A stretch of DNA of 63,927 nt, filler included, from Hausera hauseri (Eukaryota), in the NCBI GenBank assembly GCA_046269625.1. It is 11 parts of 11 records of this genome, joined end to end, with 100 filler letters (N's around TTAATTAATTAA, not from the genome) between each part and the next. Parts side by side here need not be neighbours in the genome. Positions count along the whole stretch, not along the records: positions 59,545 to 63,927 come from JBJURY010608110.1; 10 more parts are not named here. The stretch is one strand, 5' to 3'. Every line of letters starts with the position of its first letter. The first letter of the stretch is position 1. Below are positions 16,874 to 63,927 of this stretch, piece by piece. The position numbers and the translations under genes are program-made. The notes beneath the pieces are model-generated. The model did not search any database, was not told the origin of the DNA, and was given only the letters and a program-made list of their open reading frames with translations.

Positions 16874-16904
16874 AAGAATGGTGAGACAATCAAGTTTATG
16901 AACA

Positions 16905-17669: not shown

Positions 17670-17672
17670 AAG

Positions 17673-18149: not shown

Positions 18150-18151
18150 CA

Positions 18152-27937: not shown

Positions 27938-27997
27938 GCCATTGGTTGTAAAAAGAGAAGCAGTAAAAGTTCAAATTGCATATTCACACCCACAGAC

Positions 27998-29393: not shown

Positions 29394-29718
29394 CGGTGGC
29401 TGTTATGGATTGTTGTCAATGCAATCCAAAGATATAAGATAACTGATTGTTATACAGTTACCTTTGTCCTCATTAGACACGAACCCACAACGAATACCTG
29501 TAATAAATTTTTGATAACCGTTGTAATAATGTTAAGATTCTTATACATCCAATTGACTATTTTCTTTACAGCCCTTATGGAAATTCAAGCACTGAATAGA
29601 AGAAAAAACTGATTCGAANNNNNNNNNNNNNNNNNNNNNNNNNNNNNNNNNNNNNNNNNNNNTTAATTAATTAANNNNNNNNNNNNNNNNNNNNNNNNNN
29701 NNNNNNNNNNNNNNNNNN

Positions 29719-37080: not shown

Positions 37081-37927
37081 TGTTGAAGATTTTGATACGT
37101 ATTTATCACATAATGATTTGAAATTTGTTTTACCTCGACATGTAGAATCTGGAATAACAACACAATATGTTCAACAATTAAAATACTGTGCGTTCACTTT
37201 GAAATCCCTGTAAAATAAAGACCAATGGGATAAAATTGACCAAACTTGGCAATTTTATAAAGTATATAATGATTTTATCTCCGGAAAATAAGTAGTTCAA
37301 AAGTCGCTAACAGGTGGAAATTTAACGTATATTAATGACAGATTTTTATAAATACTAGTCATCATAATACAAATTCAATGTGCTGTGCTCTATTTTCCGC
37401 AACTATTTTAAAGTCCAAAGAATTTCAACTGAAGTGTCACGATTATTTCGGTGATAGCATATTTCAAATCTGTTGCGAAGTCAACGTCATTAATAAACCG
37501 TCGTTTTCCATCTGATAGTGACGTCTCAAACTATTTTTGCATGACATAAATCCCATAATTTCTTATATAATATTTCCAAGTTTGATAAATTTCGACCTAG
37601 TAGTCTTCATTTTACAGACGTTTCGAAGTGCAACTTTAATTATGAACACCCTGTATTTTAAAACCCATATAAACATATTTAACCATATACCATATAAAAC
37701 TGGAAAAATTATTTCTTAAAAAATCAATTATAGCGAACTTTGGATGACCTGCTTACGATAATTATGATTAATTATATACCCTCTATATCAAAAATCTGTG
37801 TGCATGATTAATGAAAAAGTTAGATGANNNNNNNNNNNNNNNNNNNNNNNNNNNNNNNNNNNNNNNNNNNNTTAATTAATTAANNNNNNNNNNNNNNNNN
37901 NNNNNNNNNNNNNNNNNNNNNNNNNNN

Positions 37928-40670
37928 TATATAAGGATGTGCAGCACAACTATGATTTCCAATGTATCAAGTTCCCTCCATCCATAGATGAAGTTAAAAA
38001 ATTTGAAAAGTCAACAACATGTCCATCAATATCTTGGGATTGGACGAGGATGATAAATTTTATCCCCTGCAGATATGCAATGCTGAATTGGAAGATCATA
38101 TGGATTTTCTGCTACTAGACGATGGAGAAAAGAAACATTATGTTTGAATCAAAGACTTTGAGCGGCTAGTCAGATTACAAATTACGAAACATCATGGGCA
38201 AATAGAAATATGTAAACGGTGCTTGTCCTATTTCAGTGACAGGTTAGCTGTGGAGAAGCCGAAGGAGCACAAGATGTACTGCAACAACAATTATTGTATC
38301 AGGCCAGATTTCCCCAAAGAGGACTACATTGAATTCAAGGAGTTCTAGAAGAATATCAAGGTCCCAATAGTTATCTATTGCGACTTTAAAGCGGTGCTGC
38401 ACCTAGTTCAGAGTTGCAGTCCTAATCCCCAACACAGCAGCACAACGTCATACCAATATCATGAGCTCTCATCATATTGCTTGTATGCCAAAGGACTGGA
38501 CAGTGAATCATATCTATTTAGAGGTCAAGGCGCAGCAGCTCATTTCATAAAGCGACTTGAAGATATGGCTCATAGGCTTGGCGATATGTTGCGGCAGCAT
38601 AAGGATACAATTAGCATATCGGAGCATTAAGAAAAAGAATGGTCCAAGGCAACAGCATGTTACTTGTGCGCCAAATCATTCACTAAGGGTAATTATAAAG
38701 TCAGAGATTATTGCCATTTTGCAGGCAAATATCGGGGCGCGGCATGCAACAACTGCAATCTGAACTGAAAAACATGTGCATATGTGCATGTAGTGTTCCA
38801 TAAGCTCAGTGGTTATGATTCCCATTTCATTGTTCGGGAACTGGGGAGCATTCAAGGAAACATTGATGTGATCCCTATTAGTGAGGAAATATACATCACC
38901 TTTACTAAGAATGTTTGGAAAATCAGGCTTCGCTTCATAGACAGTTTCCGTTTCATGTCGCCTTCACTTGACAGTTTAGTGAAGAACCTCCATGCAGAAG
39001 AACTCAAGGAGACGAAGCGGTTTTCCCCACTGCATTTGACCTAGTCAAAAGGAAAGGCGTCTTTCTCTATGACTATATAACATCATGGGAAACACTGGAT
39101 GATACCTCATTGCCGGCCAAGAAGGATTTTTCCAATATCCTCTATGATTGCGATATCAGTGATATGGATTACCAGCATGCTCAAAATGTCTGGCATTCAT
39201 TCCAATGCCAAACATTAAGAGAATACAGCGACATATACCTAACGACGGACGTGTTGCTTATGACGGATGTCTTTGAGTGTTTCAGGTATGTTACGATAAA
39301 AAACCATGCATTGGATCCCGCTCATTTCTTTACGGCTCCAGGGATGAGTTGGCAGCTATGCTGAGATATACAAATGTCAGGCTTCAGATCATAAAGGATT
39401 ACGACATAATATGCCAGGCAATCCACTGGTATAGTAGGGCCAACAACAAGTATATGGTCCAGTATGATCCATTTAAAGAATCCTCATATATATATCATAC
39501 CTGGATGCCAACAGCTTGTATGGATGGGCAATAAGTGCTCCATTGCCATATGATAACTTCAAGTTGGTTGAGCATCCCGAAGACATCCCTATACCGGACC
39601 TTCATCCCACTGAAGATACGGGTTACATACTGGAGGTAGATGTGGAATATCCGGCATCTATCCACACAAGGTATGAGCAGCTGCCATTCCTTCCTAGGAG
39701 CAAAAGACCACCGAATGGGGGATTAGAAAAATTACTGTATATGTAATCCACTACATAAATCTCCAGCAAGCAGTCAGAAATGGACTCGGGGTTATTAAGA
39801 TTCATCAAGCCCTGCAATTCATCCAGTCCATGTGGCTACAGCCATACATAGATCTCAATACCAAGCTGCGGACCAATGCCAAGAACGACTTTGAGAAGGA
39901 TCAATTCAAGTTATACAACAACAGTGTTTTTAGCAAGACCATGGAAGATATCCGCAACAGGATCAACATCAAACTAGTCCCTGACTGGAAGCGGGAAAAG
40001 AAGCTTATTGCCAAGCCCAATTTCCACAGCAACGTCATAAATGCGGAGAACTTGGTCAGCATCCATATGCTGAAAACATCCTTGAAATTCAACAAGCCCA
40101 TATATGTGCGTAGGGCAATATTAGACCTGGCAAAGACCCTGATGTACAAATTCCACTATGACATTACGATACCTAAGTTCGAGTCTATGCAGCTTATGTA
40201 TATGGATACTGATAGATTCACCTATCAGATCCATAGAGATGATATTTATAAGGACTTTGCCCAATTGGTGCATCACATGGATACCTCGGATTATCCGAAG
40301 GAACATCCCAACTATTCAGTAGCCAACAAAAGGTCCTTGGGAAATTCAAAGACGAGGTGAATGGAGCAATCATCTCGAGATTTGTTGCTCTTAGTTCCAA
40401 AATGTATGCCACTGATATATGTGGCGAAGTAAAGAAGCGGGCTAAAGGGGTTCAAAGGGCGACCTTAGCCAAGAAGATTGGCTTCAATGACTATGTTGGA
40501 GTTCTGCATGAGCAGACTCATATCATATCAGAGATGCGAAGGATCCAGTCTAGGGCTCATAACATTGAGACTGTAACATTACAGAAGAAAAGCTTAGATT
40601 GGATGGATGACAAGAGGCAGATCCTGGTGATGGAAGCCATACACTACCTCACGGACATGTGGCATTGTAA
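37928..40670 (+). pseudogene. polB: Protein-primed DNA polymerase B (Polinton/Maverick), copy 1
   Basis: EndoVII-like zinc motif (VRDYCHFAGKYRGAACNNCN), FHKLSGYDSHF, FIDSFRFM, DANSLYGWA, KLYNNSVF, YMDTD, SKMYA, DDKR; many stops and frameshifts. Confidence 0.92.
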
Positions 40671-41251
40671 ATATGTACATATTGTTATTCTTTGTTTAAT
40701 AAATCTTGTATAGAAATATCGTGTTTTCTTCTTGATCAAGTAATGTGGGATATAGAATAAGGCCAAGTAAAACTAAGTAACTAATATGTAGAATAAAGCC
40801 AACTAATTTCACAACACATTTATTTCATAACAATATAACTTTGGCATAACGCTAAACACTGTTTAATGTGTGTGTGTGTGCTTGTCTGTGCTTGTAGAAT
40901 GTAAGTAACCTGAGAAAAGGCATGGCTCAGATATATGTCCGTGTGTTTGCTTGGATGGGTGTATGTAAAATGCAACTAACTTGGGAAAATATATAGATCA
41001 GATATGTCTGTGTGTGCATGTGTGTAAAAAGCAAGTAATATTTAGCTAATATGACTAATATGCAGGTAATACACGGGGATTATGTATGTGATATATGAAT
41101 TATAGAATGTATTGGGTATGAAATACATGCAGCATATATGGGTAATCTACAGGTACTATATATGTAATATTTTTCGCAATATATCTAATGAAGATATTAT
41201 ATAGGTAACATATGTCCTATCAAAGCAGTGCATTTGAAACTAATCAATAGA

Positions 41252-43295
41252 TTAATGAATATGCTCATTAATACAATGTATCAATGCACTAATCAATACA
41301 CTAATCAATACTGTCTCAATGCTATGATTCCTAGATTGGATCCTTCGCATCTTGGATATGATATGAGTCTGCTCCTGCAGAACTCTCACATAATCCTGAA
41401 AACTGATCTTGTTGGCAAATGTAGCCCTTTGAACGTCCTTGGCTCTCTTTTTGATTTGACCACATATGTCTAGAGCATATATTTTAGATCTGAGAGCCAC
41501 AAATCTCAAGATTATTGCTTTATTCACCTCATCTTTGAATTTCCCAAGGACCTTTTCTGGCAATTGATTAGTTTGGATGCTTCTTTGGATAGTCCGAGGT
41601 ATCCATTTGTGAGCCAATTGGGCAAAGTCCTCATATATATCATCTGTATGGATCTTATAGATGAAATTATCAGTATCCATATACATCAGCTGCACGGACT
41701 TGAACTTGGGAACCATGACGTCATAATGGAATTTATACATTAGGGTCTTTGACATGTCGAGGATTGCCATACCCATGTATATGAGCTTGTTGAATTGCAA
41801 GGATTTTTTCAGTATATAGATGCTGACAAAGTTCTCAGCATATATGGTGCAGCTGTAGAAGTTGGGCTGAGCAATGAACTGCAGGGCTCTATTGATCTTA
41901 GTAATACGAAGTCCATGTTTAACTGCCTACTGGAGATTGATGTAGTGAACTACATACCCCTCCCTATTACCCATATGGCAGAGCAGCTTTCTATGCTTTC
42001 CAATGGGCCAAGGGCCGGTTCTCAGGGCGGAAACGCAGCTGTTGATGCCTTGCGTGTAAAGAAGCCGAATATTCTATATCTATCTCCAGTATGTATGCCG
42101 TATCTCCAGTGAGATCCACATCTAGTATAAGGATGTTTTCAGGATTCTCGACCCATTTGAAGTTATCATATGGCAATGGGGCACTCATTACCCATCCATA
42201 CTAGTTGTAGGTATTCAGATGTGATATATATGAGGATTCCTTTGTTGAGTTGAATTCGGCCATATACTTGTTGTTGGCCTCACTATATCGGTGAATGGCT
42301 TGGCATATTCCGCCTCTTATGCCTCTCTCGATCATAAAAATAACATCATAATCCTTAATGATCTGCAGCCTAATACCAGTATAGCGCAGCATTGCTGCCC
42401 AACTCATTCCTGGAATCATAAAGGAATGAGCCGGATCTAAAGCATGGCTCTTTATTGTAACATCCCTGAAACTCTCAGAGACATCCGTCAGCAGCAGCAC
42501 ATCGGTATGGAGATATATAACACTATATTCCCCTATTGCCTTGCATTGGAATGCATGCCAGACGTTCTGAGCATGCTGGTAGTCCTCATCACTTTTATCG
42601 CAATCAGAGAGGATATTGTAAAAGTCCTTCTTGGCCGGAAATGAGGTCTCATCCAGTGTTTTACTATGAAGTTATGTAGTCATAGGGAAAGGCGCCTTTC
42701 CTCTTGAGTAGGTCAAATGTAGTGAGGAAGTATCGCTTCGTTACTTTGAATTCTTATGCAGGGAGGTTCTTCACTAAACTGTTCTGTGAAGACGACATGA
42801 AACCAAAGCTGTCTATGAAGTGAAGTCGGATTTTCCCAAAATGCTCCGTAAATGTAATATACTTCTCCTTACTATTTTGGATCACCTTAATGTTTTCTTC
42901 AATGTTGCCTATTTCTCGGACTATGAAATGGGAATCATAGCCGCTGAGATTATGGAACACTACATGCACATATGTGCATGTTTTGCAGCAAAGATTGCAG
43001 TTGTTGCATGCTGCCCCTCGATATGCATCTGTAAAATGGCAGTGATCCTTGAATTTTCAATTTTCCTTGGTGAAGTACTTGTCGCACAAGTAACATGTTT
43101 CTGCCTTGCGCCATTTTTTTCCTGTCTCCACGACATGCTCATATTATGCTTATGCTGCTGAAGCATATTTTCAAGCTTATCAGCCATGTCTTCAAGTCTC
43201 TTCATGAAATGTGCTGTTGCACCTGGACCTCTGAAATGAAATAGATCACTGTCCAGTCCTTTGGAATACATGCAATACGATGAGAGTTCATCATA
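41252..43295 (-). pseudogene. polB: Protein-primed DNA polymerase B, copy 2, convergent with copy 1 and internally deleted
   Basis: FHNLSGYDSHF, FIDSFGFM, GIRGGICQA, YMDTDN, LGKFKDE, RSKIYA; closely similar to copy 1. Confidence 0.9.
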
Positions 43296-46286: not shown

Positions 46287-48000
46287 ATGAAATTTCAATT
46301 GAAAACTATCAAATACAGGATCTCCTCGGTTTTAATTCCTGGTTATGTGCGGGAGTGTGATTATTCAGTGAAGTCACCGAGAGAAATTCTCAATTGGCAA
46401 TATTGTTGTCTAACGAATTCTCCTATCTGGGTAAGCAAACTCCCAAAGATGTCATGTATTAATGTCACCGATGCGGTCAATTCTAATTTGCACGATGGTA
46501 CGATGCTTTGGTCCAACAAATGCACAGATTTCCATTTGTTATTCGATCAAAACGATTTTGGGCGATACGCCTACTGTTTGGAGCTTATTTCACTAAAACG
46601 CTTGATCTTGGATTTTACTGTCTTTTGTGAACGAATGGAGGATTGTTCAAAAGACTTACTCAAAGCAGGAAGTCATTGGATACATGAGCCGATGAATAAT
46701 AATTGGTGTCAGATTAAGGTAATATTCTTTTCCATTGTAAAATATAATGCTGAAGTTAAAATATTTGCATACTATTTGTTGGAGGCTTGTTCGGCATTTT
46801 CGGATGATATTTATAATATTTATAATATTTCGGATGATAATCCTACCCAAACTTCAACCCCTATAGATTCAAAACAGATTTTAATATTTTGAAAATATTT
46901 CGATCCTGTCAATAATTCAATGCATTTCGTTGGATGGGTATATTATGAAATTGCTTTTCAAGTTAGAGAACTATTTCCTGTTTTAAGAAAGCCTGTACAC
47001 ATCCGAAAATGTTCAGGTGATATCATGGGAAGAACGAGGACGAAATCTAACCGTGATAAATTCTAGTGAAAGCTTCATATCACCAATTAATGGAATGATA
47101 ATTATACTTGAGCCAAATGTCAAACCATCCTTATATAAGATCTCTAGGAGTGATTCCCCACAGTATATATAATACAGGTTCTCTTTCTTCACCAATTTTC
47201 AACGCGAAAGATTTCCTAGAAGATTTCCGACAAAAAATAGATGTAGAATTTATTAAAAAAATTTGTGAACTTACTTTTAGAGACATAAATAATAAACCTA
47301 GCCATATTAGAACAGTTATTCGTCTTTCACAGAATGCTAGGTACAGTGAGATTCTTAAATCTCTCGTTTTACATATTTATGTGGCTGACGTAGCTAAAAT
47401 TCAACTTTATAAAACTTCGGTACAGTCTCATAGATATAAAACCAAGCTTATTCCCGGTGATCCCGTCAGAACAACCTTCGACGGAACGTTAGGTATCTAG
47501 AAAATTCTCAAATTCAACAGCAAATTAATGTCATTCTTCCACGTGGAAAGCCAAATCAAAATGTGCCGTTAATTTACACAAATAATCAGCCTTTATCTTG
47601 TCCGACTGGGAATTTTCATTCTGCAAACTGTTACAGACGTCTCTACTTCCAATTATTAAAAATTCCAATTCATGAAGTCGAAGCTATGCAACAGTTTTGC
47701 TGTGTTTTTGTTGATATTCATGTTCAAGAACAAATGGAAATTATAGTAACTTTGCCTAAAATTGGAAGTGCATCAGATTTATTAGCTGAGGCTAAACGTC
47801 AGGCAAGATTAACAAATATAAATTCTCGTTCCTATCGACTCTTCGAGGTTGTTAATCACGGAATCATCAGTCTTATTCCATTGAAACGGAAAATATCAGA
47901 GTTGGAACCGAACGCCGAATCTTTTGGCACCGAATTGACATGGAGTCTTGATCGAATACGTGTATATCGTAGCAAACTGGAAATAACCCAGGTATATAAA
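46287..48000 (+). pseudogene. USP7: Intronless fragment of the USP7 C-terminal Ubl region (about Ubl2-4), no catalytic domain; in-frame stops
   Basis: QILIF*KYFDPVNNSMHFVGWVY...VRELFPVL; AKDFLEDFRQKIDVEF...PGDPVRTTFDGTL; LYFQLLKIPIHEVE...GSASDLLAEAKR...YRLFEVVNHGI. These are collinear with USP7 as recalled (MLFLKMYDP, AKEYFRDLYHRVDVIF, PGNPLRHNYEGTL, LYYQQLKM, GCVRDLLEECKK, LRLLEIV). Confidence 0.8.
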
Positions 48001-48459
48001 GTGAAAAGTCATTTAGATGAAATTTTACCGGCCGAATTAAATCATTATATTTATCGCAATATTGACAAAAATGATCATGCGGAAATCATGTGCCAATCGG
48101 AAGTTGTTCCTGTTGAGGAAATTGCCATTGAATCGGATAAAGGAAAATTGTCTGTTGGAATAAACTCCTTTACCAAATCGGACGATTCGAACAGAGTTGG
48201 ACATAAAATTGTCAGTCATGTCGCAATTGCGGCTAGCGTCGCACCTGAGACGCCTTTAGCAAAATCTGCCAAATTACAACTTGACGATAATACTGTTGGG
48301 TCTGTGGTCAACGCTGAACTGCAAGCGGGGTCCTCGGCTACCCAGCAGTTTGCGGCCCGTCACGGCGCGACTGAAGCCCCGGCCGTCCACCCTATGCCAT
48401 TGGGTCAAACGGCGCCGTTCATTGCCGCACTACGACACGCCCCAGGCCACACGACCCCT

Positions 48460-51400
48460 CCTTATCTCGTTTTCTTTTCTCTAAACAACAGACACATTTG
48501 CACACATACAGTAAAACATGTAAACACAGCTGCCATCCATAAAATCATCTCCACTTCTCTTCACTCCTCTGACTTCGATCTTACACAATGGATCTGTAGT
48601 GCCCTGCGCTGGACCCTTCCAACCTTCTACAATTTGTGTCTGCCTTCACATTTACTTCCGTATCCGTGGTGGCATGGATTTACCACCCACAATTGATACT
48701 ACGGACAAACTCACCAAACCACAGATATCTATCACTTACTTACCCAAACAAAGTGCTTCAAACACTTTGACACAACACACACTCCTCACTCATTCACCCT
48801 GCACAGAATACTTCCTCGACAGCCAAAACTCTACTCAAACTTGGCTAAAACTGCATCAATTCTGACTCCAATCAAAAAACGTCGTCGACTCTTTATCCAA
48901 AGCCAACTGCGTTTTTTTTCATTTACCAGCTTCCATCAAAACTAAAATTACCAATATCATCGACATCCTTCATCACACCGACCCCTATACTCAACTTTTT
49001 AATGCCGTTCTCAAGCTTACTGAGCCGTCAATCGATTCAATCATGCAAAGATTCTTCAACGACAACACCATTGGCCTTCAGAAAACCTCTGAATTCTTGT
49101 ACACATCTTTGTGTCATCTCACTACCCTTGGCGTAACATCTGAGCATAGTCCAGAACTTCGTCGCTATTTTTAAATGCATTGCCCCTTTAAACAAGAGCT
49201 TTGCTTACTGTGGTCGAGGACTCCACGGCTCTGGAAAAGCTAGCCGAACTGGCGGCTAAAGCATATGAAGTACTGCACTTACACACAGCACCAACTATCT
49301 CTGCGGCATTAACAACAGACCAACAACAACAAAATGCAATGCTGCAGCAACAAATTGCGCAATTACGCAGGGAAAATGAAATGTTACAAAAGACAATTAA
49401 CAACATAAATGAGAAATTAAATGAGTTAACGCTGCTTCGACGAGGTTTTTCTATGGCTACTTCCCCTAATGTATTTAACCAACGTCAAAGACGGTCACCT
49501 TCACCCGCGCGGTTGTCTATTTGTTACTACCATAACAAATTTGGTAATAATGCTCAAAAATGCTGCATCGGTTATAAATTTTACTCCCCCAATTTCAATA
49601 AAAGCAACATTGCTTGCATCTATTACTCGAACTTTGGCACAAAAGCACAATAATGCCTACCTGGCTGTAACTACAACACACACAATAAAACCAACACTAC
49701 TATGCTCACACAAAACAGTAGGCCAAACTCACCAGCTACAAAAAACGGATTTCGCCGCTAAAACACACTGCAAGTTCTAGCAAAGGCAACAACATGTAAA
49801 AAGATAACCGACACATTTCCTTTGCTGTATTCACGTTGGAAGCAGCAGTTGTCACCCCAACAAAGCAAAACATTAACTTTCTTATAGACACCGGCGCAGC
49901 AATCTCTTTACTACCATCAACACAGCATATCCAAAACAATTTCACTTCAAAAAAGCAACTGTTTACTGTGTCCGGTGAAACTTTACAAATTTTTGGTGTT
50001 ACCAAATTAACGTTAACTCTTCCACATTTCCCAAATACATTCACTTGGAAATTTACAATAGACAATATACGCACACCTATATTAGGTTCAGACTTTCTGT
50101 TCCACTACAATTTACTTGTAGATTGCAAACGATGTTCCTTAAAGTGCGGAAATAATCTTAACCAAATTAGCAGCATTTCGGTGACCACCCGGACGATCGC
50201 TTATATCAAGTCAAGACTGAAAAAAACGACCTCCGATTTGAATTATTTTTATAATCACTCATTATACAGAAATTTTTACTACGGTGACATATGCGATATT
50301 GCCAACTGCGTGGCACCTATTACTGATAGTACAGCTGCCAACACCATATTCAACACGAACATCCTGCAACAAATACCGTCTAGTCACAACATCTTGTCTA
50401 CAACTCATAGCGCAACTGCATCCAGTTACGATGCATCGACACCATCGGATAACTTTTCATCGTTGCCTTCTGATCCACAGCAATACATTTCGTCTTCCTG
50501 CACGCGTCTGTTGCAGAAGGACAAATCATTCGTACTACCTCAATCCACCTTCCATCACATATTAACAACACATCAAAGACCAATACGGCAAATGGTCCGC
50601 TGGTTATCGACTCGCCGGAGACAGGCAGTGGAGGCTGAGTTTCTCAAACTGGAAAGATCAGGAATAATCAGAAGATCCAAATCCCCGTGGTCTTCACCAC
50701 CGCATGTGGTTCCAAAAAAAGATGGCACTTTTCGCCCATGCGGTGATTATCGCCAACTCAATATCATAACAACAATGGATGCCTACCCTCTACCATTAAT
50801 CAACGACATTCTTTACATGCTCCATGGTTCGACCATCTTTTAATGCATTGGTTTACACAAAGCATACCACCAAATTCCGGTGGCCCCAGCAGACATTTTG
50901 AAAACGGCCGTCATTACACCCTTCGGCCTTTTCGAATATCTGTTCATGCCTTTTGGACTCGGTAGCGCTTCCCAGACCTTCCAAAGGCATACTGATACAG
51001 TTCTATCAGGTTTAGACTTTGCTTATCCCTATATCGATGATATCTTATTTGCATCATCCTCCTCGAAACAGTACTCCGAACACTTACGTTTGACCTTCCA
51101 ACGCTTGCACCAAAACAATTTGCAAATTAATTTCGCCAAATGCTTTTTTTCAATATAAGGTCAACTTCCTAGAATACCTTATTAGCTTCTCCAGACATTC
51201 ACCTCAGCCAGAGCGCATAACAGCTAAAAAACATACAACTACCATGTACATCAACATAGATGTGTTCTTTTCTCGGAACCTTGCACTTTCTTCATAAGTA
51301 TGTTCCACACTGCTCCACTCTAACCGCTCAATTTGCATCACTAAGCTCTGGCAAGAAAAAACAGCCTATTCAATGGACCGCCAAGCTAGTCAACGCTTTC

Positions 51401-53385
51401 GATCACCTCAAACATAATCTAAAATCTGTGGAAATTCTAGCCTATCCCGACTCCCATGCAGAACTCTTCTTAACCACGGACGCATCCACAACAGCTGCAG
51501 GTGCTGTTCTCCATCAAGTCAAAAGTGGATTCCATGAGCCATTAGAATTCTTTTCTCGAAAATTCACGGCACGAGAGCAAAGATATTCCACATTTGACAG
51601 AGTGTTGCTTATATTGGTCCTTACTGTAAAACACTTTAAACATGTGCTAACTGCACAAATTTTTACAAAACAGAAGTACCACAAGCTCTTGTTCAAATTC
51701 TCGCCATGAAATCGCCTTTTCCACATCAAGAGAGACAAATATCGTATTTGTTAACGTTTAATTTTGTAATTAAGCACTTAAACGGAGTCGACGATTTAGT
51801 AGCTGACTTTTTGTCCCGATCGGTCAGCTCGACTGATTTCAAACGAATTTTTCCTCAATCCAAACTTCCACAAAACCAGCCACCTCCTGACATTCTTAAA
51901 TCTTTTAAATCAAACAAAACCATCGAAGGTGTGGCCTTTGACACCCCCAAATCTCATAATCCTAAAGTAATCCTTTCTGAATCGTTTTAAAAAAAGCATT
52001 CAACAACATCCATTCGTTGCACCATCCTGGTGCCAAGGCCACTTTTCAACTCTTACAACATCAAGTAGTATGGCCGTCGATGTGCTCTGACGTGCAGGCA
52101 TGGGTTAGGCACTGTGTAGCATGCCAAAAATACAAAGTTACTAAGCACTTAAAGCCACCAATATATCATTTTCCCTGCACGTCTCGTTTTGAATCTGTTC
52201 ACATTGACCTCGTAGGTTCACTACGTTTAGACAACGGCCATCAGTTTATTTCACAATGATGGACCGTTCCTCGCGATGGCCAGAGGCTGTCCCGCTTCGG
52301 AGCACCAACACAGAAACAATCGCAGATGTTTCCATCCGCACTTGGATTAGCAGGTTTGGATCACCTCGCCACATCATTTCGGATCAAGGTTCACAGTTCG
52401 AATCTAACCTGTTTAAATCTCTTGTCAATCGATTGGGAATTAACCACATTCACACGTCACCGTATCATCCCCAATCGAAGGGCTTTCTTGAACGCTTTTA
52501 CCGAACGATGAAAACGTCTCTCAAAATCCTTGCTGAGTCCAATCGCAGTTAAACTACACTCCTCCACTACGTTCTGCTTGGCTGGCGGAACACATCATCT
52601 ACTTCTACATGCTGCTCTCCTGCAGAAGCATTATTTGGTACTTCTATTAGACCATTATTCGACCTGGCTGAGCTGGACAATATTTCTACAGACGAAACCA
52701 TACAATCGGCACAGAGACACTTCATTGAGATCAGCAAAGACTCATTTCGTAGACTGTTACAGGGAAATAAACCCAACATACTCGACGATTTATACACTGC
52801 CAAGTTCGTATGGCTAAAGAATCAGACGCCGTGTAATTTTCAACTTCAGTATGTTCGCCCTTACAAAGTAATTCGTTTACACTCCCACAACACCATCATT
52901 CTCAAGGACAACAAAGAAGTAACAGTCTTCCATATCTGCTCCATTCGTTAACCCACTTTCCCCTACGTTTTCTCCCAAGACTTCCACATCAGTTTTTTCT
53001 GACAGTTCCTCCCGTTTTTCCCCATCCGATTTTGCACCCTTAAGCATTGTAACACCTCCTTCATTTCCTGGTGACAACCTGCTTTCTCCTTTTACAAGAA
53101 CACCACTTCTACTTCATAAATCTCTCCATCTTCTTGCTCTCTTCCGTTTTGTCCCTCTTCGCCATCTTCTCACTCTCTTTCTCTTTTTCCTTCCGCTCCT
53201 TCCTCATTTTTGGCCCTCCCTTCCACCCTCTCTCATCACACATCGTCTTTTACTCCTTTCATCTCCGCTTCACAACTTCCTTCTCCTTCTACCTCTATTC
53301 CTATCTCTCTCTCTTTCTCTACCACTCCCTCAGTCTCATTTTCTACTTCTACTCTTTCGTCTACCACAATTCCAATTTCTACCTC
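48460..53385 (+). mobile_element. Ubl-Gag family copy I: Ubl (ends YFRIRGG at 48673), gag, AAAAAAC frameshift, near-complete decayed pol
   Basis: YLVFFSLNNRHICTHT...LHIYFRIRGGMDLPPTIDTTDK; tandem CYYH/CIYY knuckles; LIDTGAAIS; YIDDILF; TTDASTTA; HHPG...CVAC; SDQG. Confidence 0.9.
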
Positions 53386-53485: not shown

Positions 53486-54650
53486 TCACACTCATATGTC
53501 AATAGAACTTCTCCGGTTACTCGTCTAAAAACACCTTCCTTCATCGGAATTATTGGTGATGCCAACTCGGGATTTGCCTATATTAAAGCTAATTTAGTTC
53601 TCATGATTTCCAAATCCAATTTACAGTCGTTTGTTATCACTTTACGGTATAACTCGGCTATTCCGGCTTGTCCTTTATAGTAGAAATAGTCGTCTCTGTT
53701 CTTCAAATAGTCTTCAATCCGGATGTCCTGAGTCTCGAGTGTGAACGTTCTGGAGTTTATTTCTGTCTCGGCTACGAAAAATGCTTTATAGTTGGTGGCA
53801 TACATTACGACGTCGCATCTGGTAAGCATAGCCTTTTTTTTACCAATTTCAGCCCATGAGTGTCAGAGATCAGTATCGTAGGTGTGGACTGTTCGGCTAC
53901 ATCTTCTCGTGTTTTAGAGTTAGTTTCCATGCTACTTATGTATCGCTTTCTTGCCGTTTCGTTGAATTTAAGCTCTTTAATACTGATAAAGTTGCAATCG
54001 GTCTTGGCTGGAGTTCCCAAATTATTACGGAACTTCGAAACGGGCATGTGCCATCTTGAATGCGGCATTTGTGGTTATCGGTGTAAAGTTTAGTAACGCT
54101 ATGAAACATCACTTTCTGTATACGCATTACGGTTTCGTAAAAATCCACTACTACGACGTTTGACTCTAATCCCATTCTGGTATCGTATTCCGAACCGTGA
54201 CAATATCCAGTATGCATATCCAGCCTTCCTGCTGCAACTTTATACACTCTGATTATTTTCCCTTGCTGCATTTCCATTTCCGTATTATCCCATTTTATTC
54301 TCCCCGTTTCTTTAACTTGCTTACAATGCTGTGGCTCTAAATTCATCGGAATTAGTGAAGTTGTTGGCTTTATTACTGACGAGTGTCCATGTACCACTCC
54401 ACAATGGAAAATGCTGCGAGATCGCCGCAACATACATTCTACTCCGTCTAGTTCGCGTTGCTGATATAGTATATAACTTTTTTCTTTTGTTTCTAATCTG
54501 TGGGGCCTCACATTTTCGCACATTTCCAAGTCCATTAACGAATATTTTTGCCGAGTTTGAATTTGTCACAATCATATACTGTGACTGCGCCCATTTGCCT
54601 TATTAACATCATCACGGTCAAAAAATTGATTAGCCAGTTCGATTCATTTC
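53486..54650 (-). pseudogene. Chuvirus-like class III (gB-like) glycoprotein, truncated by the contig end
   Basis: AVTVYDC after a hydrophobic leader; ECMLRRSRSIFHCGVVHGHSS; GYCHGSEY...NVVV; LYRKVITNDCKLDLEIMRTKLAL; VTGEVLLTYEC. Confidence 0.8.
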
Positions 54651-57600
54651 CTCTGCGATTTCCAGTCACGTTTCGCAGCAGATATCCAAATCTATTGTTA
54701 TCGAAGAAGAATCTATTTTGATGCTCTTCTTCTTTTCGAATAGCTTCGTCCAGTCCACTTCTCAGGGCAGTTTCCTGGCAGCCTTCCTTGCCAAGCTAGT
54801 AGCCTTGTTAAATTTACTTTCTCGGATCGGGTTGGTTTTGAAGGCCAGATATAACAACACTTTTCTCAATTCCTCTATAGTGTTTCTTACCATAATTTTC
54901 TCGATTATCATTTCATCGCTTAGAGTACTTCTGGTTAATTTTCACCGAAGGCCTTTCATAGCCTTTGCGGCGTTCGCTATGGCTTTCTCTTTCTTATCTA
55001 ATACATCACCGCCGAGGCTAAAGTTGTTTACTATTCGTATCAAGTCTTTCATTAGTTCGTTCAGTCCCTCATTATCCACATTAAAGGGCGGCAGGGACAT
55101 TTGTCTCAACTCTTGATTAAATCTCCATTGCAATCGATTTCCTCTCGTGTTTTCCGCGGCCTACTGACAGAACGCTTCTGTTTTATTAAAATAGGTACAT
55201 TGCTATTTATGGGTACTAAATTTTTATCGTATTGTTCATTATCTTCATTTGTCTGGAGATACTCGAAATATGCTGTTGGATCTCGGACTCCTATTATTTG
55301 TCCTACATGTTATTCTGCTTTAACCTTCCTTATAGCCTCGTCCTTTGTTTTGTCGATTGCGGTAGTTACCACTAACCGGTTTGCCTGACCTGGAATAATT
55401 CCGACTTCTATCAATAATTCCGACTCGTCTAGTATCCTTCATCTAAAATAGAGTCTATAGCTTGGCTGGTGGGCGTATTTATTGTTCTTTATACACAGTA
55501 ATACATCTTTTTCAAGGGAGCGCGTGGTAAACTCTTATTCCTTCTCGTCTATCCAGTCTGATGTTATCTTTACCGGGAATATTTCCTCTGCCCTTGCCTT
55601 TAAGTTTTTGGCATATTCCTTGAGTAAAATCTTAGGTACCGTACTGGAAGTCGTTATTTCGCTAGCTAACTTAGTTAAGGTAGGAACTAGATGTCTCAAT
55701 TGATTTTCAGTGAGGTTCACTTCAATTAATTGAATTAAATCCTTTTCGGTTTGTACCGGGTCCAGAAGCATTTCTACGTTGAACTTTTGTTCCAGATAGT
55801 ATACATCCCTTTCATCCAATCGTATTGGGGTTTTCTGATTCTTGGCAATCACTGCGTATTATTTTTTTCCCAATCTGAATCGTTTTTATTGTCCGGCGAT
55901 TAATAACCCTTCAATGGTATATCAGGTGGCCTGTTCACACTTGCGGTCCATGTATTTTTTCTGACTTATTGTAGTTTCTGTTGCATTTGGACCATTTTCG
56001 TCGTTCGGAAACAGCGTTTATTATCAGAAGTTTGGCGTGACAGTGTTAATAACGAACATAATTCTTCGGGTGAAATTAAACCCTCTTCTTGATATTTTGT
56101 TAGTTCAGACGTGACATCTCTTTCCCATCTTTGAATGAGATGTGACTTGTCAGCCTTTTCTGCTTTTGTAAGGGCGTATTTGATTTTATATACTTTGAGC
56201 TCTCTATCTTATTCGTCTAATCCTATCGCTCTCTGCTTCGTCTTAATGCAAGTTTCTTCGACTTGTTGTATCTGCTGCAACAATTGTCTTAACCTTTTAT
56301 CTCTAATTTCTGCCATTTCTGCCGCCAATAGCAATAATTCATACATTTCGTTAATACTCTTCGAATCGGGATCTATTACATATAATAATTTTTTTACAAA
56401 TTTGATCTCTTTGAAGCTAAGGTGATGGTCATTCTTTATTTTAATCAGTTTGGTATGATAACTTTGATCTATTCCACCCCTCCATTCTTGGGGGCAATTT
56501 AAGAACTGCACCGCTTTTTCAACGACTGACCGATATTCGGGACAAAAATCTAAGGTTTCAAGATCTTCGATTGAGATTGCTTCGATAGGCTTGGCTGTCA
56601 AATACCGTATTCCTTTCAGGCGGATATCTCTTAATCGCGGATAGAAATCGCAAGTCGTATTTCGCTTCCGCACAAAGTTTGTTTCTTCGACCATCTTATA
56701 TATTTCATCTAGTATAGTCATTTCTTGTTTCTTTTTCATAAAGTCCAATTTGTGTAATGCATCAAATTGGGTTCGGATGTCAATTTCTGCTTTCATCGTG
56801 TCTAGATTTTGAGCGTCTTCCTCCAATTGTTTCTTTACTGTTGGTTTGCTATCCGGGAACTATTTTTTCCGACTTTCTACTAATTTACGCAACTTTGTTA
56901 TTACATCGGACCATTTGTTCAACTGATTAGCGATTTATGGCTTTACCAATATTGCTTTGTCTAATATTTTGCAAGCGTCCTCCAGCTCATCATCTGGACC
57001 TTGGATAAAATCGAGGATCCGGCAAGCATAGTCAAATTCGTCTTTATATTTGTCGAATTCAAGAATACAAGTCATAATTATTTTCTGTGTTTCATTATTA
57101 TTTGGATGCATGATTCTATTCCCCAGGCTGTATATTTGGGACCTTTCTCGGCCTCAATTCTAATACGGTTTTCCAAACTTGTATACTGTCTAGTTGCATT
57201 ATTTATCATTTCCGTTAGGTGCGGAATATCTAATAAATCTATGCCCATTATTTTTAAATCGACCTCAGTCCGTTATTTAACCGGTTTCTTTTTCAGTCGG
57301 TCGAATATGATGAATGTAATTTCATCCATAACACGCTTTAAGTTACGTACTACTCTTTATAATTTCGGGTTAGCTTTTAATGTAGTCAATAGAGACTGAG
57401 CTAGGTTGATTCTAGCTTCGATGTCTTGAGTAGTTTTATCCCATGCTTCTGAAGTTTCATTCCACTTTTCGTCCATCGTTCTAATTCGTGTTTCCACTGA
57501 GCTAGTGTTTCTTCTGCCACTTCCTCAGGATGGTCTAAGTCTATGGCTTCGCTTAGTTTTCCTTCACTGTATAGTTTCATCTTTTTTTATAATCTGTCTA

Positions 57601-58179
57601 GAAACTGTTGTTCCTTGCCAGAAATATCAACTTGATCACTTATTGCTTTTAGTTTCGCTAGATTCTGTTGTACTGCCTCTGGATTGAAACAATTCATCCT
57701 CATTCTTTTTAATTCTTTGGCGTTTTTCCACGAGCGTCTGACGTACCACTTTTAGGATCGAGTTTGTCTTCTGGTTCTGCTTCCTCTTCACTAGAAGGTA
57801 AAGGACATATATCATTTATTTTATTTATTGATTCCGTTCGACTACCCATTTCATTAATTTCCGGAGTGTTCCAAGCAAACTCAGTGTCTCTCTCCAGCAC
57901 GATTTTTGTACCTCTCTTTGTGTCCGGCTTCTTAGTCATCGGGGATCTCAAACGATCCTTACGTTTCCGTCTCAATGATGGGCTACGGCCTATATTCTTT
58001 GTAATTTTAAGGATTAGTGGTTCCAGAAACTCTTTTTCTTCGTCTGACTTCACCTTTTGGAGCACCTTTCTTATCGTATACTCGGATGCTACATCTAGAT
58101 CTACTTTTTGCGGAGTCTCAGATTTTCTTGATTCAATTAACTTTTTGTTTATCGCAGGAATGTTCTTTTTTCGTGCCAT
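54650..58179 (-). pseudogene. Long fragmented ORF2 between gag and the glycoprotein: charged/coiled-coil regions, a helical domain and a Ubl domain (55361-55582)
   Basis: ORF fragments 57709-58179, 56209-56826, 55535-55852, 54942-55133; read-through gives FPVKIT...YRLYFR*RILDESELLIEVGIIPGQANRLVV. Confidence 0.55.
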
Positions 58180-58257
58180 ATCACTCAGCCTTGGTGGGGC
58201 AATGGAACGTTCATATTCCGTTTCTGGTTCGCGTATACCGTAATAGACTTCTAATAG

Positions 58258-59355
58258 TCATAATGGGTGTTCATACTCGTTTCTAGCTACTAAAACTTTG
58301 GGGTCCTTCGTATCAGGCTGGGCCTTTAGAAAACGGCGTAAATCCTGTATCTCGATAATCATTCCTGTGTCTCTATGAACACCGTAAATTGCTTCTAAAT
58401 TTTTATTTTTAATTACGTCAGTCTTACTAGGTTCCACAAACAAGACATTTCGCGAATTCGGACAGGATATTGCTATGAGTCCTTCTTGTTTACATGTAAA
58501 ACAGACTAAATTGCCATTTTTTCCAACTCTTTGTCTGCCATCTTCGTTTAACGGAGATTTAGATCTACTCGGATTTCCATTGTAGTTTGGTTGCGACGAG
58601 ACCTGTCTAGGGTCTCCATATTGGCGATTATCGAAATTTTGGCTGTCATTCTGTCGATTAAAATTATTGAAGCCATCTAGGCGTTTATGCGTATGATAAT
58701 TTAATTTATTGGAAAAACTATTTCGACTATTATCAAAATTCTGATTACTATATAGCTCGTTTCTTCGGTCATAATTACTGTTCTTGTTCCGATCCCCATA
58801 ATTCCTGTTATATCGTCTATCGTTTCTATTATTTCGATTTCTGTTGCTTCGCTCTCCTTGTTCATTATTTCTATCATTTCTGTCATTGTTTCTGGCATAT
58901 CTATCCAATGCCATTTTTAAGTCCTGAGCTAATTGCAATATCCTATCAAAATTTTCCGGTCGTACTAGAATCAATTGCTTTACTATGTCTTTAGACCAAA
59001 TACCATTTATTAATTGCGTCATCATCATGACGTCTAAATCTGGCGGACTTGCTTTTTCTGCAGCCTCACATTCTGTTTTGTTTTTAGCCTTGGCTATGTT
59101 TGCTATTCTTAAGGTGCTTACGTAACTATTTGCATATTTCTTTAATGCAAAAGCGAATTGGGTTATCGATTTACCCTTTTGTTGCACTCTATTCTGAAAA
59201 GCCATGAGTTTTTGTTGCGGAGTTACAGTCGGTAACAATTTTCGATTTAAAGCTCCTACCAGCGAAAACCAAATTTTCTTCTCATCATCCGTTAGTTCAC
59301 TATAGGCATCGGCGGCCAAATTCTTCAAATATAATGACAAACGCTTAATCATCAC
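58258..59355 (-). CDS. gag: Ty3/Gypsy-type Gag, 5'-incomplete
   Basis: RLSLYLKNLAADAY...FQNRVQQKGKSITQF (Retrotrans_gag-like); N/R-rich linker; CFTCKQEGLIAISC degenerate CCHC knuckle. Confidence 0.8.
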   Translation of the reverse strand: MMIKRLSLYLKNLAADAYSELTDDEKKIWFSLVGALNRKLLPTVTPQQKLMAFQNRVQQKGKSITQFAFALKKYANSYVSTLRIANIAKAKNKTECEAAEKASPPDLDVMMMTQLINGIWSKDIVKQLILVRPENFDRILQLAQDLKMALDRYARNNDRNDRNNEQGERSNRNRNNRNDRRYNRNYGDRNKNSNYDRRNELYSNQNFDNSRNSFSNKLNYHTHKRLDGFNNFNRQNDSQNFDNRQYGDPRQVSSQPNYNGNPSRSKSPLNEDGRQRVGKNGNLVCFTCKQEGLIAISCPNSRNVLFVEPSKTDVIKNKNLEAIYGVHRDTGMIIEIQDLRRFLKAQPDTKDPKVLVARNEYEHPL

Positions 59356-59544
59356 GTTAGATGCTAGTCCAGCACCTTCTGTGTGTAGTTTATGTCCTTA
59401 AGAATTTATTGAGTATGTCCGGATCTCTATCATATGCAGGCAAANNNNNNNNNNNNNNNNNNNNNNNNNNNNNNNNNNNNNNNNNNNNTTAATTAATTAA
59501 NNNNNNNNNNNNNNNNNNNNNNNNNNNNNNNNNNNNNNNNNNNN

Positions 59545-59920
59545 GGAGAAAAGACTAGCTATAAGAAGAAATCCAAAAAGGATGGAAGAGCACTACCTAA
59601 CATAGATTCCGAAGGAAGATTCAAATGTTTTAATTGTAATAAATATGGACATATAGCGAAATCATGTAGATTACGTAGAGGAGACTCTTTAAAAGCAAAT
59701 AATAAGAATAAACAAAAGAAGGATCACACATCAGCTACGTCAGACGAATCATCGGATAGAGAATATGAAACGGAGGATAGTGAACCAGAAGTTAAGAAAA
59801 AAGATAAAAAGAAAGAAAGTGTCAATTATATAAATGATACACTACCTCAACACATGAAAAAGCAATTAGAGATAGAACTACAAGAGTACAAAAGACAACA
59901 GCAAAGATTGAAAGAGTAAT
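59545..59920 (+). CDS. gag: Gag C-terminus with CCHC zinc knuckle
   Basis: Manual translation GRFKCFNCNKYGHIAKSCR (59626-59667). Confidence 0.75.
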
Positions 59921-60233
59921 ATATACATGGTAGGAGATCAACCGGAGAAAAGAGCATCTCATATAGGAAGGAAGAAATGTAATAAGAAAATAATTGACGT
60001 AGAAGTTGGATCAAGAGAAACGTCAACAAAGGGGGAAGAGGTAGTGAAAGGAAAGAAAGGCGGAAGAAGGAAGAGTAACCTTAGTACACCCTCATTGGAC
60101 GAAGACGAACCTCAAGTTACACTAATATTTGACGAAGCTATATTAGGTAATAAGAAACCCAGGTGTAAATTTAGACAAGGAGGAGGATATCATTCAGGCA
60201 GTATTAGCTGTAGACCCTGGTAATATAATCGAT

Positions 60234-63200
60234 GTGGATAAAACGACTACCACGATATTGAAGATAATCACCAGTAATATAACGGTAGAAAGAATGAACG
60301 AAATTGTACATCAATTGGTATTATTAGCCCAAGATGCCAGTCGTGTCAGAGAAATAGCCAGGACAGTATTGGCCAAAGCCGCAGAAGATGAGAAAAGCAG
60401 GAATGAAGCTGTACGAATAACAATAAGAGAAGGAAACCATGATATGAGGGTCATCAGGATGAATGAAATAGATGACATACAAACTTTAAGAGAAAAGATT
60501 AAGGAGTTGGAGCCTTTCTACCAAGGAAGCCCGTATGGATTAAATTATTTTGGAAGGACATTATACAATTATGATAAGTTATTAAGAATTGGATGTAGAA
60601 GTGAGAACTACAATCCAATAACGATAACTGAGGTTCACCTAGAGGCAAGAGCGCAAGCAACAGTGGAAAATATTCTAAGAGAAATGGAACCGCAGAAAGT
60701 AGAGAAACCCATGGGCGATACACAAGACGTCACAGTCCAGACGGAAGCCAAGAGAATAGGTAGGCCGAGAGGGAAAAAAATAAGTGACATACGCAATAGA
60801 AAAGATAGAAACGAAGAAATAGTAAGACGTTTGTTGTTAGCAGGAACAAATGGCACTCCCGAATCGGAAGATATTAATCCATTGCTAAGAACGTTATTGG
60901 CTAGGCTGCATAAGTCATTTGCCTCATTTGACATGCAGACAATAATCCCAGATGAACTGTTTACAACGTTACGTAATAATATGCTACGAATAAGTCGACA
61001 ATTATATGAGAATTTAGATGAAGAACGAATAATCGAATTACATGAGTTAAATATTTTGGAGAAGATGTTCGCAACAGGAATCACACGAGATAAAGCTCAA
61101 ACGGCTATATCTAATCTTCTGTATAAAATAATAGTAATTAATCACCAAACTCAAAATCTAGAAGAGATTGAACGAAATATAAAGACAGCCGTAAAGATTT
61201 TAAAGGATACGCTAGGAAGCTGGGCTCAATGTAGAGGCGGATGGTTGAACTGCCTGATGACCAATATAATGAGGTCAGGAGAACGAGAAAGATTAGTAGA
61301 TACACCTACCACAACGCAATCAAACGTCTCTAGACCAGGCATGACAAGTATATTAATAATGGAAATTCTTCAAATTCTCTTAATAACGTCGCAATTAATG
61401 CCAAAAGCCGTAGGTATAGTGGCTTACTATTGCTCTAAACCTAGCAAAGGGCAGAAATACTCCCTAATAGATTTGGAGAAGTGTCCAGAAGCCGATTTAG
61501 AACAGTTAACAACTACAGGTGGGCTTACATACTGGATATACCAAGCATCTGAGTTTATAAGAGCAAACGTCATGGAATGTTACGTGAAAAGATGATTTTT
61601 CCTGTTTAATTGTGTTCATTATTCGGGAAATTCGGCTATAATCGTGCCCATAACACCTTTCGAAACAATAATATCACAAGCAGAATGCCAGGATACTTTT
61701 AAGATTGTTATAATAACTATACAAAACGCACACATACCGGCAGTTCGAAACAGAATAAAATATACAAGAATTTTCATGGCAGGAAGAATAGACAAAAACA
61801 ATGGAAGGCACCTGTAAAGGAATGGATTACGATGTTGAAGGTACCATCGCGCTCAGAACAGTGGCCATAGAAGATTACCAGATCCAGTTGAAAGAATATG
61901 AGAGATTATTCGATTCACAAACAAAATTGTTGACGACTATAAGTGAGTCCGAATATGATAATGGCGAGTGAGTTACTGGAGAGTCAAAAATGACATGGGA
62001 AACATCGGCAAGTAAGTGTCAGTTGACACTGTTAAAGGAAGGAAAGTTTAACAAGACAGTAGGAAAACGGCAGAAAAAGAAACAGCGACATATAAAGAAG
62101 GAGCAAAGGAAGTCAAGATGATTGAAGTAGCTACAATTGTATATTCGGAAAATCCAGAAGAAATGATGCAATTCAAAATCACTGGAGTAGCAAGTAAGTG
62201 TAGCGAAGAAATATCAAAAACTAACTATAAGAAATACCCGGGGCAAAAACTAAGATAGATAATAACGATATCATGCTAACACAATATTTCGACAATAATA
62301 TCGATATCCTAATTAATTATGTGAGGAAAGAAATTAGAGGTCTGTATCGAGAAATAGTAATGAACGAGTGTCAATTGAATTACGAAATAATGCGTAATAA
62401 AATGGCATTAGCAATCACAAATCCAGACATGGTAACGCCGGTGATGCCCTTTGGGGATGGAATTATCGGAAGAGTGATGGGCGAGGTACGGTTAACAATA
62501 GAATGCAAGAAGGTAGAAGTATCAATCAGACCAGTGGACGAATGTACACTGGAATTACCGGTAGTTTACCACACGGAAGCGAGATATGTGATGCCAGTAA
62601 CCCGAATATTATTAGATATTAACGTGAAACCTACTCCATTATACAATTGTACCTTCAATATGTCGCCAATGTTTAAAATCGATAATGGAAAATGTATCCG
62701 AATGCCCAAAAGAGAGCCAGTGTCCAAACCGGAGACATTAAGTTTGATTAATCTGCAAAGGAACCAAAAATTTGAACCATTAACAGGAATATCTCAGGGA
62801 GGAATTTACACACAACAAAATCTAGAGGATTACCGACGTATGTTACTCTTTCCCCAACAGAGACAGAGGGTTATAACAGAACTAACCAGGAGAGTAATGT
62901 GGGATGGTAAAGGATCACCACAATAAGAAAACCTAATGGGTAAGGACTATCTAAAAAGAGTAACAAAAAACGTTATTGAAAAGATGTGGGAAAAGTTCTT
63001 ATATTTCGGTCAAGCAGCTTCCGGTTTTTTAGCTGTATATTTCATTATTAGCGCCATACGGACAGTTTTTATGGCACTAGGTAAGGCATATGGAATACAT
63101 GCAGCAGTAGGATGCTCATGGAAAATCCTAATAGCTGTAATACCAGCAGTAGCAAGCTGTTTTCTAGCAAACAATGATGCACGATGGAAGAGGACAATAT

Positions 63201-63535
63201 TACAAAGGAAAGACATAAAAGGATCCCTGTGTAATATACCTAATGATAATGATGTTGGATATAATCAGGTAAAGGCAAAAACAAAATACAGTCGAGTAAC
63301 CGAAATTAAACAACTAGTGCTGAAGACACGAAAACCGAAGTACAGACAACAGTTGATAACTGACATACCTCACCTAGATCCAGTAGATGAATGCCATGGA
63401 CAGTTATATAACGAGCAATCAATAGTAAACCCCTCTGCTGCTCGATACGTAGTGCATACAGGATTATACCCAATGCATCAAATACAACAGATGCAACGAA
63501 ATCTTGACGAAAACGTGATACCGTATAAACGCTAA
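60234..63535 (+). pseudogene. ORF2-Env polyprotein: helical domain, Ubl (60411-60644), then chuvirus-like class III glycoprotein; fragmented
   Basis: Signal-like ILIMEILQILLITSQLMPKAVGIVAYYC...YSLIDLEKC; LYREIVMNECQL; MGEVRLTIECKKVEV...ECTLELPV; GGIYT; C-terminal hydrophobic FGQAASGFLAVYFII...GCSWKILIAV. Confidence 0.8.
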
Positions 63536-63569
63536 TCTACATATAAAACTGATGATAAAAATGAACTAC

Positions 63570-63927
63570 AACCACGTATAAGGCCAAAAATAGCGATAGA
63601 GGTGACTGGATACCCAATGACAGCGTTGCTTGATACGGGTCTACAACGACGATAATGGGAAGGAGCCAATTGCCGAAAGAGTTAAAATGGAAATTACAAA
63701 AACCAACAACTACTTTGGTGAATGTAGGAGCATTCGGTACAGAAGAAGAAATTAAGAGGGTCTTAGATGCAAGAATTAAGATCGGTAAGCAGACCGTGGA
63801 ACATACTATAAGGATAGCTGAGCATCTGGCTAATGAAATTTTAATTGGACGCGATATATTAAACCAATTGGAAAATGTTTACATAGATTTAAAGACATGC
63901 CAACTGAAGACTTTCGGTGAAGATAGT
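63570..63927 (+). pseudogene. pol: Retropepsin (start of pol), frameshifted, runs off the window
   Basis: RPKIAIEVTGYPMTALLDTG(fs)STTTIMG...ILIGRDILNQLENVYIDLKTCQL. Confidence 0.8.

Follow-up and report, generated by a model that had tools for sequence, protein, structure and literature searches.

A dead copy of a high-copy retroelement in Hausera hauseri, most likely of Ty3/gypsy type and a compact relative of Burro, with env between gag and protease

The last segment (59545–63927, + strand) of a 63,927-nucleotide stretch of Hausera hauseri DNA (the window, i.e., the whole stretch that was analysed) harbors a dead copy of an LTR retroelement present in high copy number. Most likely, this element belongs to Ty3/gypsy and is a compact relative of the planarian Burro, with env situated between gag and the protease and the products likely made as one long polyprotein. 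The probability of this reading is put at about 0.82. The most fitting place for the element is among the errantiviruses of the GAG-ENV-POL kind, as a compact Burro-like member and a new example of a layout that has already been published.

The window is composed of separate repeat-rich pieces of 4–10 kb strung end to end and separated by an invariant spacer that consists of Ns and stop codons (N44-TTAATTAATTAA-N44, 10 copies); its GC content (31–45%) exceeds the one known from Schmidtea (>70% A/T). The piece under study is the last in this string, and owing to this composition of the window, position 59545 is the start of a piece and not a boundary of the element. The piece opens within gag, and the window end cuts the protease; accordingly, the LTRs, reverse transcriptase (RT), and integrase are absent from this piece, which spans gag interior to protease interior. 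From the Gag knuckle, this copy leads via a linker to the Bcl-2-like domain and the signal peptide, and onward through the glycoprotein and the membrane anchor to the tail and the protease. The gag–env–pol order proposed in a preliminary description of this DNA is hence confirmed: the Gag knuckle, the fusion glycoprotein, and the aspartic protease are all read in this succession on the + strand, each at the place claimed for it. Another piece of the window carries a second element, with gag and then env, lacking DNA-level kinship to the first.

Gag's C-terminal portion (59545–59916) contains one CX2CX4HX4C knuckle (59626–59667), matching PF00098 with E = 1.2e-5. Two features sought as characteristic of Ty3/gypsy (Metaviridae), a canonical knuckle and a retroviral-type protease (PF00098 and PF00077, respectively), are both present. 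Next comes a basic linker (59912–60220) without a family match, its frame differing from those of gag and ORF2; Gag and ORF2 also lie in different frames in this decayed copy. The N-terminal part of ORF2 (60147–60950) is in frame with env and carries a QT..GRPR motif (60738–60770), presumably AT-hook-like. Among the 16 clade relatives, 4 have this motif, picked after data inspection, ahead of env; the 90 other matches all lack it. The open frame at 60147–61592 runs uninterrupted from ORF2 via a hydrophobic signal-like stretch into the env N-terminus. ORF2 is not a gene of its own, since this frame is common to ORF2 and the N-terminus of env and holds the Bcl-2-like domain. The distance from the knuckle to the signal peptide is ~570 aa, as counted from the one knuckle seen in a piece missing the gag start, and no Pfam match to SMC, BIR, ankyrin, MATH, or SUMO-like domains was detected between these two landmarks.

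The stretch directly before env (60951–61247, + strand) is likely a Bcl-2-type cell-death domain, BOK-like by best match; the matches from PDB phmmer, Pfam, and the relatives are weak singly but concordant. It features a BH1-like motif (F..GIT..K) and a BH2-like motif (W....GGW). In the phmmer search of 177,635 PDB sequences, the two best matches were both BOK (6ckv, E = 0.0021; 5wdd, E = 0.059), with the alignment spanning ~100 residues and taking in both motifs, and the Pfam Bcl-2 family (PF00452) was matched at E = 0.025, below the cut-off. Comparison with 156 fetched env relatives returned exactly two matches, P0008 and P0011, located at the same place before env. P0011 matches Pfam Bcl-2 (E = 0.00096) and Bcl-xL (E = 4e-4) in its own right, and P0019 possesses a BH2-like motif at the equivalent pre-env place, making three of the 13 relatives with upstream sequence that feature a Bcl-2-like domain before env. 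A three-row profile (best E = 0.022) brought no gain over the single-sequence PDB match.

Structural comparisons of this stretch relied on AlphaFold models of low confidence (pLDDT 40 and 50). Foldseek on such a model found no match at E ≤ 0.001, with several Bcl-2 chains among the weak rows and Bcl-2 not first; VIA-align gave a best Z of 7.5, with helical bundles and, again, Bcl-2 not in first place. The BH1+BH2 pattern was encountered in none of 300 shuffled controls, a result of little weight, since the pattern was made after seeing the sequence, and a word-indexed homolog search with the stretch yielded none of 113 candidates. Overall, the concordance of weak sequence matches suggests a BCL2-like domain directly before env, the placement known from Burro. 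The pre-env stretch of the second window element, singled out by eye as Bcl-2-like, was discarded as unsupported by the PDB, Pfam, pairwise, and profile tests.

Env is opened by an internal signal-peptide-like hydrophobic stretch (61341–61394), recognized by hydropathy and by the same stretch preceding env in relatives. The glycoprotein itself (61413–63181) comprises a Monjiviricetes-type ectodomain, an anchor, and a second hydrophobic stretch. It is read in five pieces, four of which match the Monjiviricetes fusion glycoprotein family (PF24664) in collinear order, covering profile positions 8–147 (E = 1.8e-8), 148–198 (E = 0.01), and 297–609 (E = 1.5e-58); the piece at 62070–62231 has no PF24664 match. 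A side match to BDV_G (E = 2e-4) was recorded as well. Together with the PF24664 match, the chuvirus-G hallmarks listed in the preliminary description, i.e., AYYC/YSLIDLEKC, LYREIVMNECQL, GEVRLTIECKKVEV, CTLELPV, and GIYT, are present indeed. By family assignment, this env is chuvirus-G/gB-like and class III, which is the gB/class III type of envelope expected of an HSV/gB-type errantivirus. Against the PDB, env had no sequence match; word-indexed homolog searches returned none of 344 and none of 589 candidates, searches for related loci gave none in viral contigs and none in metagenomes, and the Atlas features for env provided only leads below 0.9. The double hydrophobic C-terminus noted earlier stands for this copy, in which two stretches are seen (63014–63085, the membrane anchor, and 63095–63181), but 12 of 13 relatives possess one strong stretch only.

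Downstream of the glycoprotein, the env tail or linker (63182–63535) ends in a stop, and a retroviral-type aspartic protease begins (63536–63927; PF00077), to be cut by the window end. LLDTG is found at 63626–63640 and ILIGRD at 63838. The RVP profile (PF00077) is matched over positions 4–23 and 23–97 on either side of a frameshift just after LLDTG, which is the one frameshift of the protease. Env has accumulated three stops and three frameshifts, and one more stop separates its tail from the protease, so the copy at 59545–63927 is a dead one.

The env tail and the protease share one frame, and, as the protease starts in the frame of env, env and protease of the family are likely one ORF; the position of env between gag and the protease, in frame with the latter, is that of Burro. 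One public run, X1, contains the stretch; it is possibly the source sample and hence not independent. In this run, 567 contigs aligned over 63330–63720 with no joints, and of the 712 depth units there, 641, or ~90%, lacked the stop between the env tail and the protease (44 contigs). This stop is private to the present copy, and the family therefore likely makes an Env–protease–Pol polyprotein. A different arrangement within the same gypsy family, with env and pol made separately (by splicing, read-through, or frameshift) and Gag encoded by its own ORF as in ordinary errantiviruses, appears unlikely. The different frames of Gag and ORF2 in this copy would agree with it, as would the env ORFs without a Gag knuckle in 8 of 13 relatives and the treatment of GAG, ENV, and POL as three ORFs in PMC13524379. 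A separate gag ORF is compatible with these observations, but a separate pol does not fit the ~90% of depth without the stop, nor the union of env and protease in one ORF in 15 of the 22 long matches or cluster members (19 + 3) chosen for Pfam scans; in 5 of 13 relatives, the env ORF takes in the knuckle, too.

Other copies of the element are abundant in X1: 14,501 contigs aligned to the piece at ≥80%, covering 30 of 30 bins. Their identity to this copy was ≥99% for 711 contigs, 95–99% for 2,172, 90–95% for 5,548, and <90% for 6,070, which leaves 11,618 of the 14,501 less than 95% alike. The family is a many-copy and mostly aged one. Diverged contigs span the junction of the Bcl-2-like domain with env (61190–61439) and that of the env tail with the protease (63356–63686); one contig that connects BH2 and env, for instance, differs at 46 of 250 bases. 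Since contigs of other copies bridge both junctions, env does not represent a nested insertion, which the preliminary description had named as a refuting condition, and it can be regarded as an integral part of the element. It is very unlikely that a viral glycoprotein or a mobile piece landed by chance in an ordinary gag–pol element or that the piece is an assembly chimera. Admittedly, the window is made of joined short repeat-rich pieces, and none of the 8 displayed X1 contig records from other copies bridges the gag–ORF2 junction. Nevertheless, the cover is continuous, only 2% of the X1 contigs continue into unlike sequence, the env junctions are bridged by the diverged copies, the second element, unrelated at the DNA level, displays gag and then env on another piece, and the layout is common to many relatives.

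The affiliation of the element was approached via its env relatives. A HMMER search of 1.84 billion representatives revealed 732 of them at E ≤ 1e-3, led by one 76%-identical fragment and ten long proteins of 30–40% identity; the ranks below were mostly occupied by stand-alone glycoproteins of 650 aa with 21–31% identity. In nine of the ten long proteins (ranks 2–11), env is in frame with the protease, and the tenth stops at the end of env. The label “Flavobacteriaceae bacterium” attached to P0009 was not accepted as its host, being likely the result of MAG contamination. Seven of the scanned relatives reach RT, and all seven carry PF17917 and PF17919 along with an LDL.SG[YF].Q[IV]- or DL.KGYYQV-type motif; these families and motifs we take to be gypsy markers. 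Families assumed to mark BEL were found at E ≤ 0.05 in none of the seven. Integrase follows RNase H in six of these seven relatives, the order PR–RT–RH–IN being common to BEL/Pao, too.

A quick env tree of 70 rows (24 chosen matches, the first 45 of 86 stand-alone-length matches, and the window, the rest being left out) placed the window in a group of 22 rows (SH-aLRT 99) together with all 14 env–protease rows and apart from both P0153, a BEL-linked env preceded by DUF5641, and P0137, where env follows integrase. The same split received 100/100 in a careful 25-row tree (midpoint root). An AU test rejected a clade of the window and P0153 (p-AU = 3.2e-6), as judged with a single BEL-linked row and after the quick tree had been viewed. 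Two motifs, selected after data inspection, are distributed likewise: TNY at the end of domain II occurs in 12 of 16 clade proteins vs. 2 of 90 others, and T[DE]HP in none of the 16 vs. 50 of the 90. TNY is also present in all six published Schmidtea GAG-ENV-POL rows and in both window elements, TDHP in three of three mosquito BEL rows; by eye, the env motifs agree with the Schmidtea rows. A flatworm host seems likely.

These findings bear on the possibility that the element belongs to BEL/Pao and is of the mosquito Anakin type with a chuvirus G. Its glycoprotein would come from the same Pfam family, and a BEL-linked env (P0153) is among the matches. Yet neither the trees nor the motifs nor the AU test, with its one BEL-linked row, group the window env with the BEL-linked chuvirus G, BEL-type families are missing from the RT-bearing relatives, and the knuckle is canonical and the protease RVP-type; this possibility is already largely refuted and deserves hardly any credence. 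The earlier preference for gypsy over BEL is upheld by proxy, with the seven RT-bearing clade members and the AU test speaking for it, and so is the suggestion that the env lineage is distinct from that of Anakin, as it forms a separate branch in the env trees. Most likely, the element is Ty3/gypsy, as can be judged by proxy through env relatives of 30–40% identity.

Among the known systems, the closest parallel is offered by the planarian Burro/GYPSM1, giant gypsy LTR retrotransposons with the organization Gag-BCL2-Env-PR, in which env lies between BCL2 and PR, in frame between gag and pol (PMC6431247). The Burro ORF is ~4,900–5,100 aa long and includes SMC, BIR, ankyrin, MATH, and SUMO-like domains between gag and BCL2; its env is linked both to gypsy Env and to the glycoproteins of mononegaviruses and, in the accessible text of that paper, is not termed chuvirus-like or class III (PMC6431247). 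As far as this account goes, both elements lead from a CCHC-knuckle Gag through a BCL2-like domain and an env with mononegavirus fusion-glycoprotein matches to the protease, and both have a high copy number, with decaying copies on record. The window element is far more compact, and, with ~570 aa between the knuckle and the signal peptide and no Pfam matches to the Burro accessory domains there, it is deemed Burro-like but not Burro.

GAG-ENV-POL gypsy elements with a gB-type env have been described from Nematoda, Bryozoa, and Platyhelminthes, and arthropods contributed 114 gypsy elements whose G is chuvirus-like (PMC13524379); the words Burro, Bcl, in-frame, and polyprotein do not occur in the main text of this source, in its accessible part. 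The “ancient errantiviruses” reported there (notably Smed_errantivirus_1–6) resemble the window element in gene order and in the gB-type env, but are intact, unlike the decayed window copy (PMC13524379). By eye, the Smed rows available share with it a string of domain I–II motifs (YQ...F, EC, C.L..LK, and TNY), and 13 identities to Smed_6 were counted by eye in the first 39 positions. By eye, too, the 19 Nematoda_C1 env rows look unlike the window env. Sacco et al. 2022 reportedly described nematode ERVs of Metavirus type in which the glycoprotein of an RNA virus lies between gag and pol in one continuous ORF; we know of no Bcl-2 domain in them. Anakin, a mosquito BEL/Pao element with a chuvirus G (bioRxiv 10.1101/2020.02.15.950899), resembles the window element, to the extent covered by the available text, in harboring the same broad glycoprotein family inside an LTR element, but differs in its BEL/Pao backbone, its separate env branch, and TDHP in place of TNY. 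In the BEL-linked P0153, unlike the window element, env is not fused ahead of the protease. The data of PMC10084718, in its accessible part, gave no clear instance of capture by gypsy elements. Any novelty of the arrangement itself has to be given up, since an in-frame env preceded by BCL2 was described for Burro (PMC6431247), and GAG-ENV-POL elements with gB-type env are on record (PMC13524379). Compact Burro-like families may even stand already in the supplements of Sacco 2022 and Grohme 2018 or in Repbase.

A tentative working of an intact family member can be outlined as follows. One long polyprotein would be made, extending at least from the Bcl-2-like domain through integrase. Entry of the glycoprotein into the ER would be directed by the internal signal peptide; there, signal peptidase would cut and free the glycoprotein N-terminus, and the upstream Bcl-2-like product would stay in the cytosol, with the signal peptide fixing it to the membrane. 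The signal-peptide helix lies ~30 residues after BH2. In tail-anchored Bcl-2 proteins, the membrane helix is likewise placed after BH2. The single anchor would stop the transfer, so that protease, RT, and RNase H, together with integrase, would be back in the cytosol; 12 of 13 relatives have only one strong hydrophobic stretch. The protease and Pol would thus stay attached to the env tail until released through self-cleavage by the protease. The two C-terminal hydrophobic stretches of the present copy would complicate this topology if both cross the membrane. Capsids assembling on membranes that bear the class III fusogen could then pass between cells. Damping of host cell death would be the most plausible task of the Bcl-2-like domain, and a pro-death or a structural role is conceivable, too. 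The decayed copy described here is incapable of any of these steps.

More speculatively, and with the odds rather against it, compact Gag-Env-Pol gypsy viruses may form a broad clade of which the giant Burro is one branch. The env signal peptide of these viruses might be used doubly, exporting the class III fusogen and tail-anchoring a captured Bcl-2-family protein, so that the virus would bring its own membrane-bound cell-death regulator, gained and lost repeatedly (3 of 13 relatives) and possibly outside planarians. In a limited literature search, no work was found that put the BCL2 domain or the tail-anchor idea to a functional test.

The layout, the env type, and the BCL2 domain are already in print, and the element carries little weight as a discovery. 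It adds a compact example joining two lines of work, on Burro (PMC6431247) and on the GAG-ENV-POL errantiviruses (PMC13524379), which apparently proceed without cross-citation in the accessible text of both papers. It also indicates that the Bcl-2–env–protease core exists without the giant accessory region of Burro, and its short natural Bcl-2-like stretch is a candidate for assaying the putative interference of such elements with host cell death.

The window is made up of repeat-rich pieces of 4–10 kb separated by an artificial spacer (10 copies); the adjacency of two pieces is no evidence for linkage. On a piece of its own, at 53486-59444 (minus strand), lies a second element built like the main one, the decayed Burro-like gypsy copy, and diverged from it. 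Its gag (58258-59444, minus strand) carries a degenerate knuckle, and its env, truncated at the end of the piece, matches the PF24664 fusion glycoprotein family twice (E 1.5e-13 and 1.8e-5). Between gag and env, there are approximately 1,290 codons of A-rich, broken coding sequence without a family match; a Bcl-2 domain ahead of env was considered here and found to be unsupported. The env of the second element shows 38% and 29% identity to that of the main element, and blastn between the two elements returned no match.

In several polyproteins of the env clade recovered by the HMMER protein search with the main element's env (P0157, P0012, P0014, and P0010), protease-like domains are repeated downstream of env. 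In P0157 (4,844 aa), six stretches match PF13975, with ankyrin and C2H2 matches interspersed. The Burro section of PMC6431247 makes no mention of such an arrangement.

Other gypsy elements also occur in the window. The element at 1326-6883 (minus strand) retains an unbroken pol of 1,330 aa (RT, RNase H, and integrase), preceded by a 542-aa ORF. Several decayed copies of a C-rich family with CHCC-like gag motifs (49192-52951, 29807-31340, 23109-24918, and 8140-11188) are presumably CsRn1-like. At 25105-29618 (plus strand), downstream of a decayed gypsy pol (RT, integrase), there is a long pair of ORFs (27938-28975 and 28950-29393, plus strand) that terminates with a hydrophobic segment plus basic residues; a Pfam scan of the first ORF gave no match, and the pair may be an env-like ORF3.

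The long inverted pair at 38457-43295 (complementarity ~80%) and the capsid-like ORFs at 16792-19273 were judged by eye and are taken to be apparent Maverick/Polinton remnants, of the polymerase in the former case. An ORF at 47461-48693 (plus strand) contains a fragment of the USP7 C-terminal domain (PF14533, E 1e-13), surrounded by sequence without a match. At 34633-37170 (minus strand), adjoining TE remnants, an open frame of 845 aa encodes AWS and SET domains; it is presumably Set2-like and possibly represents a host marker or a retrocopy.
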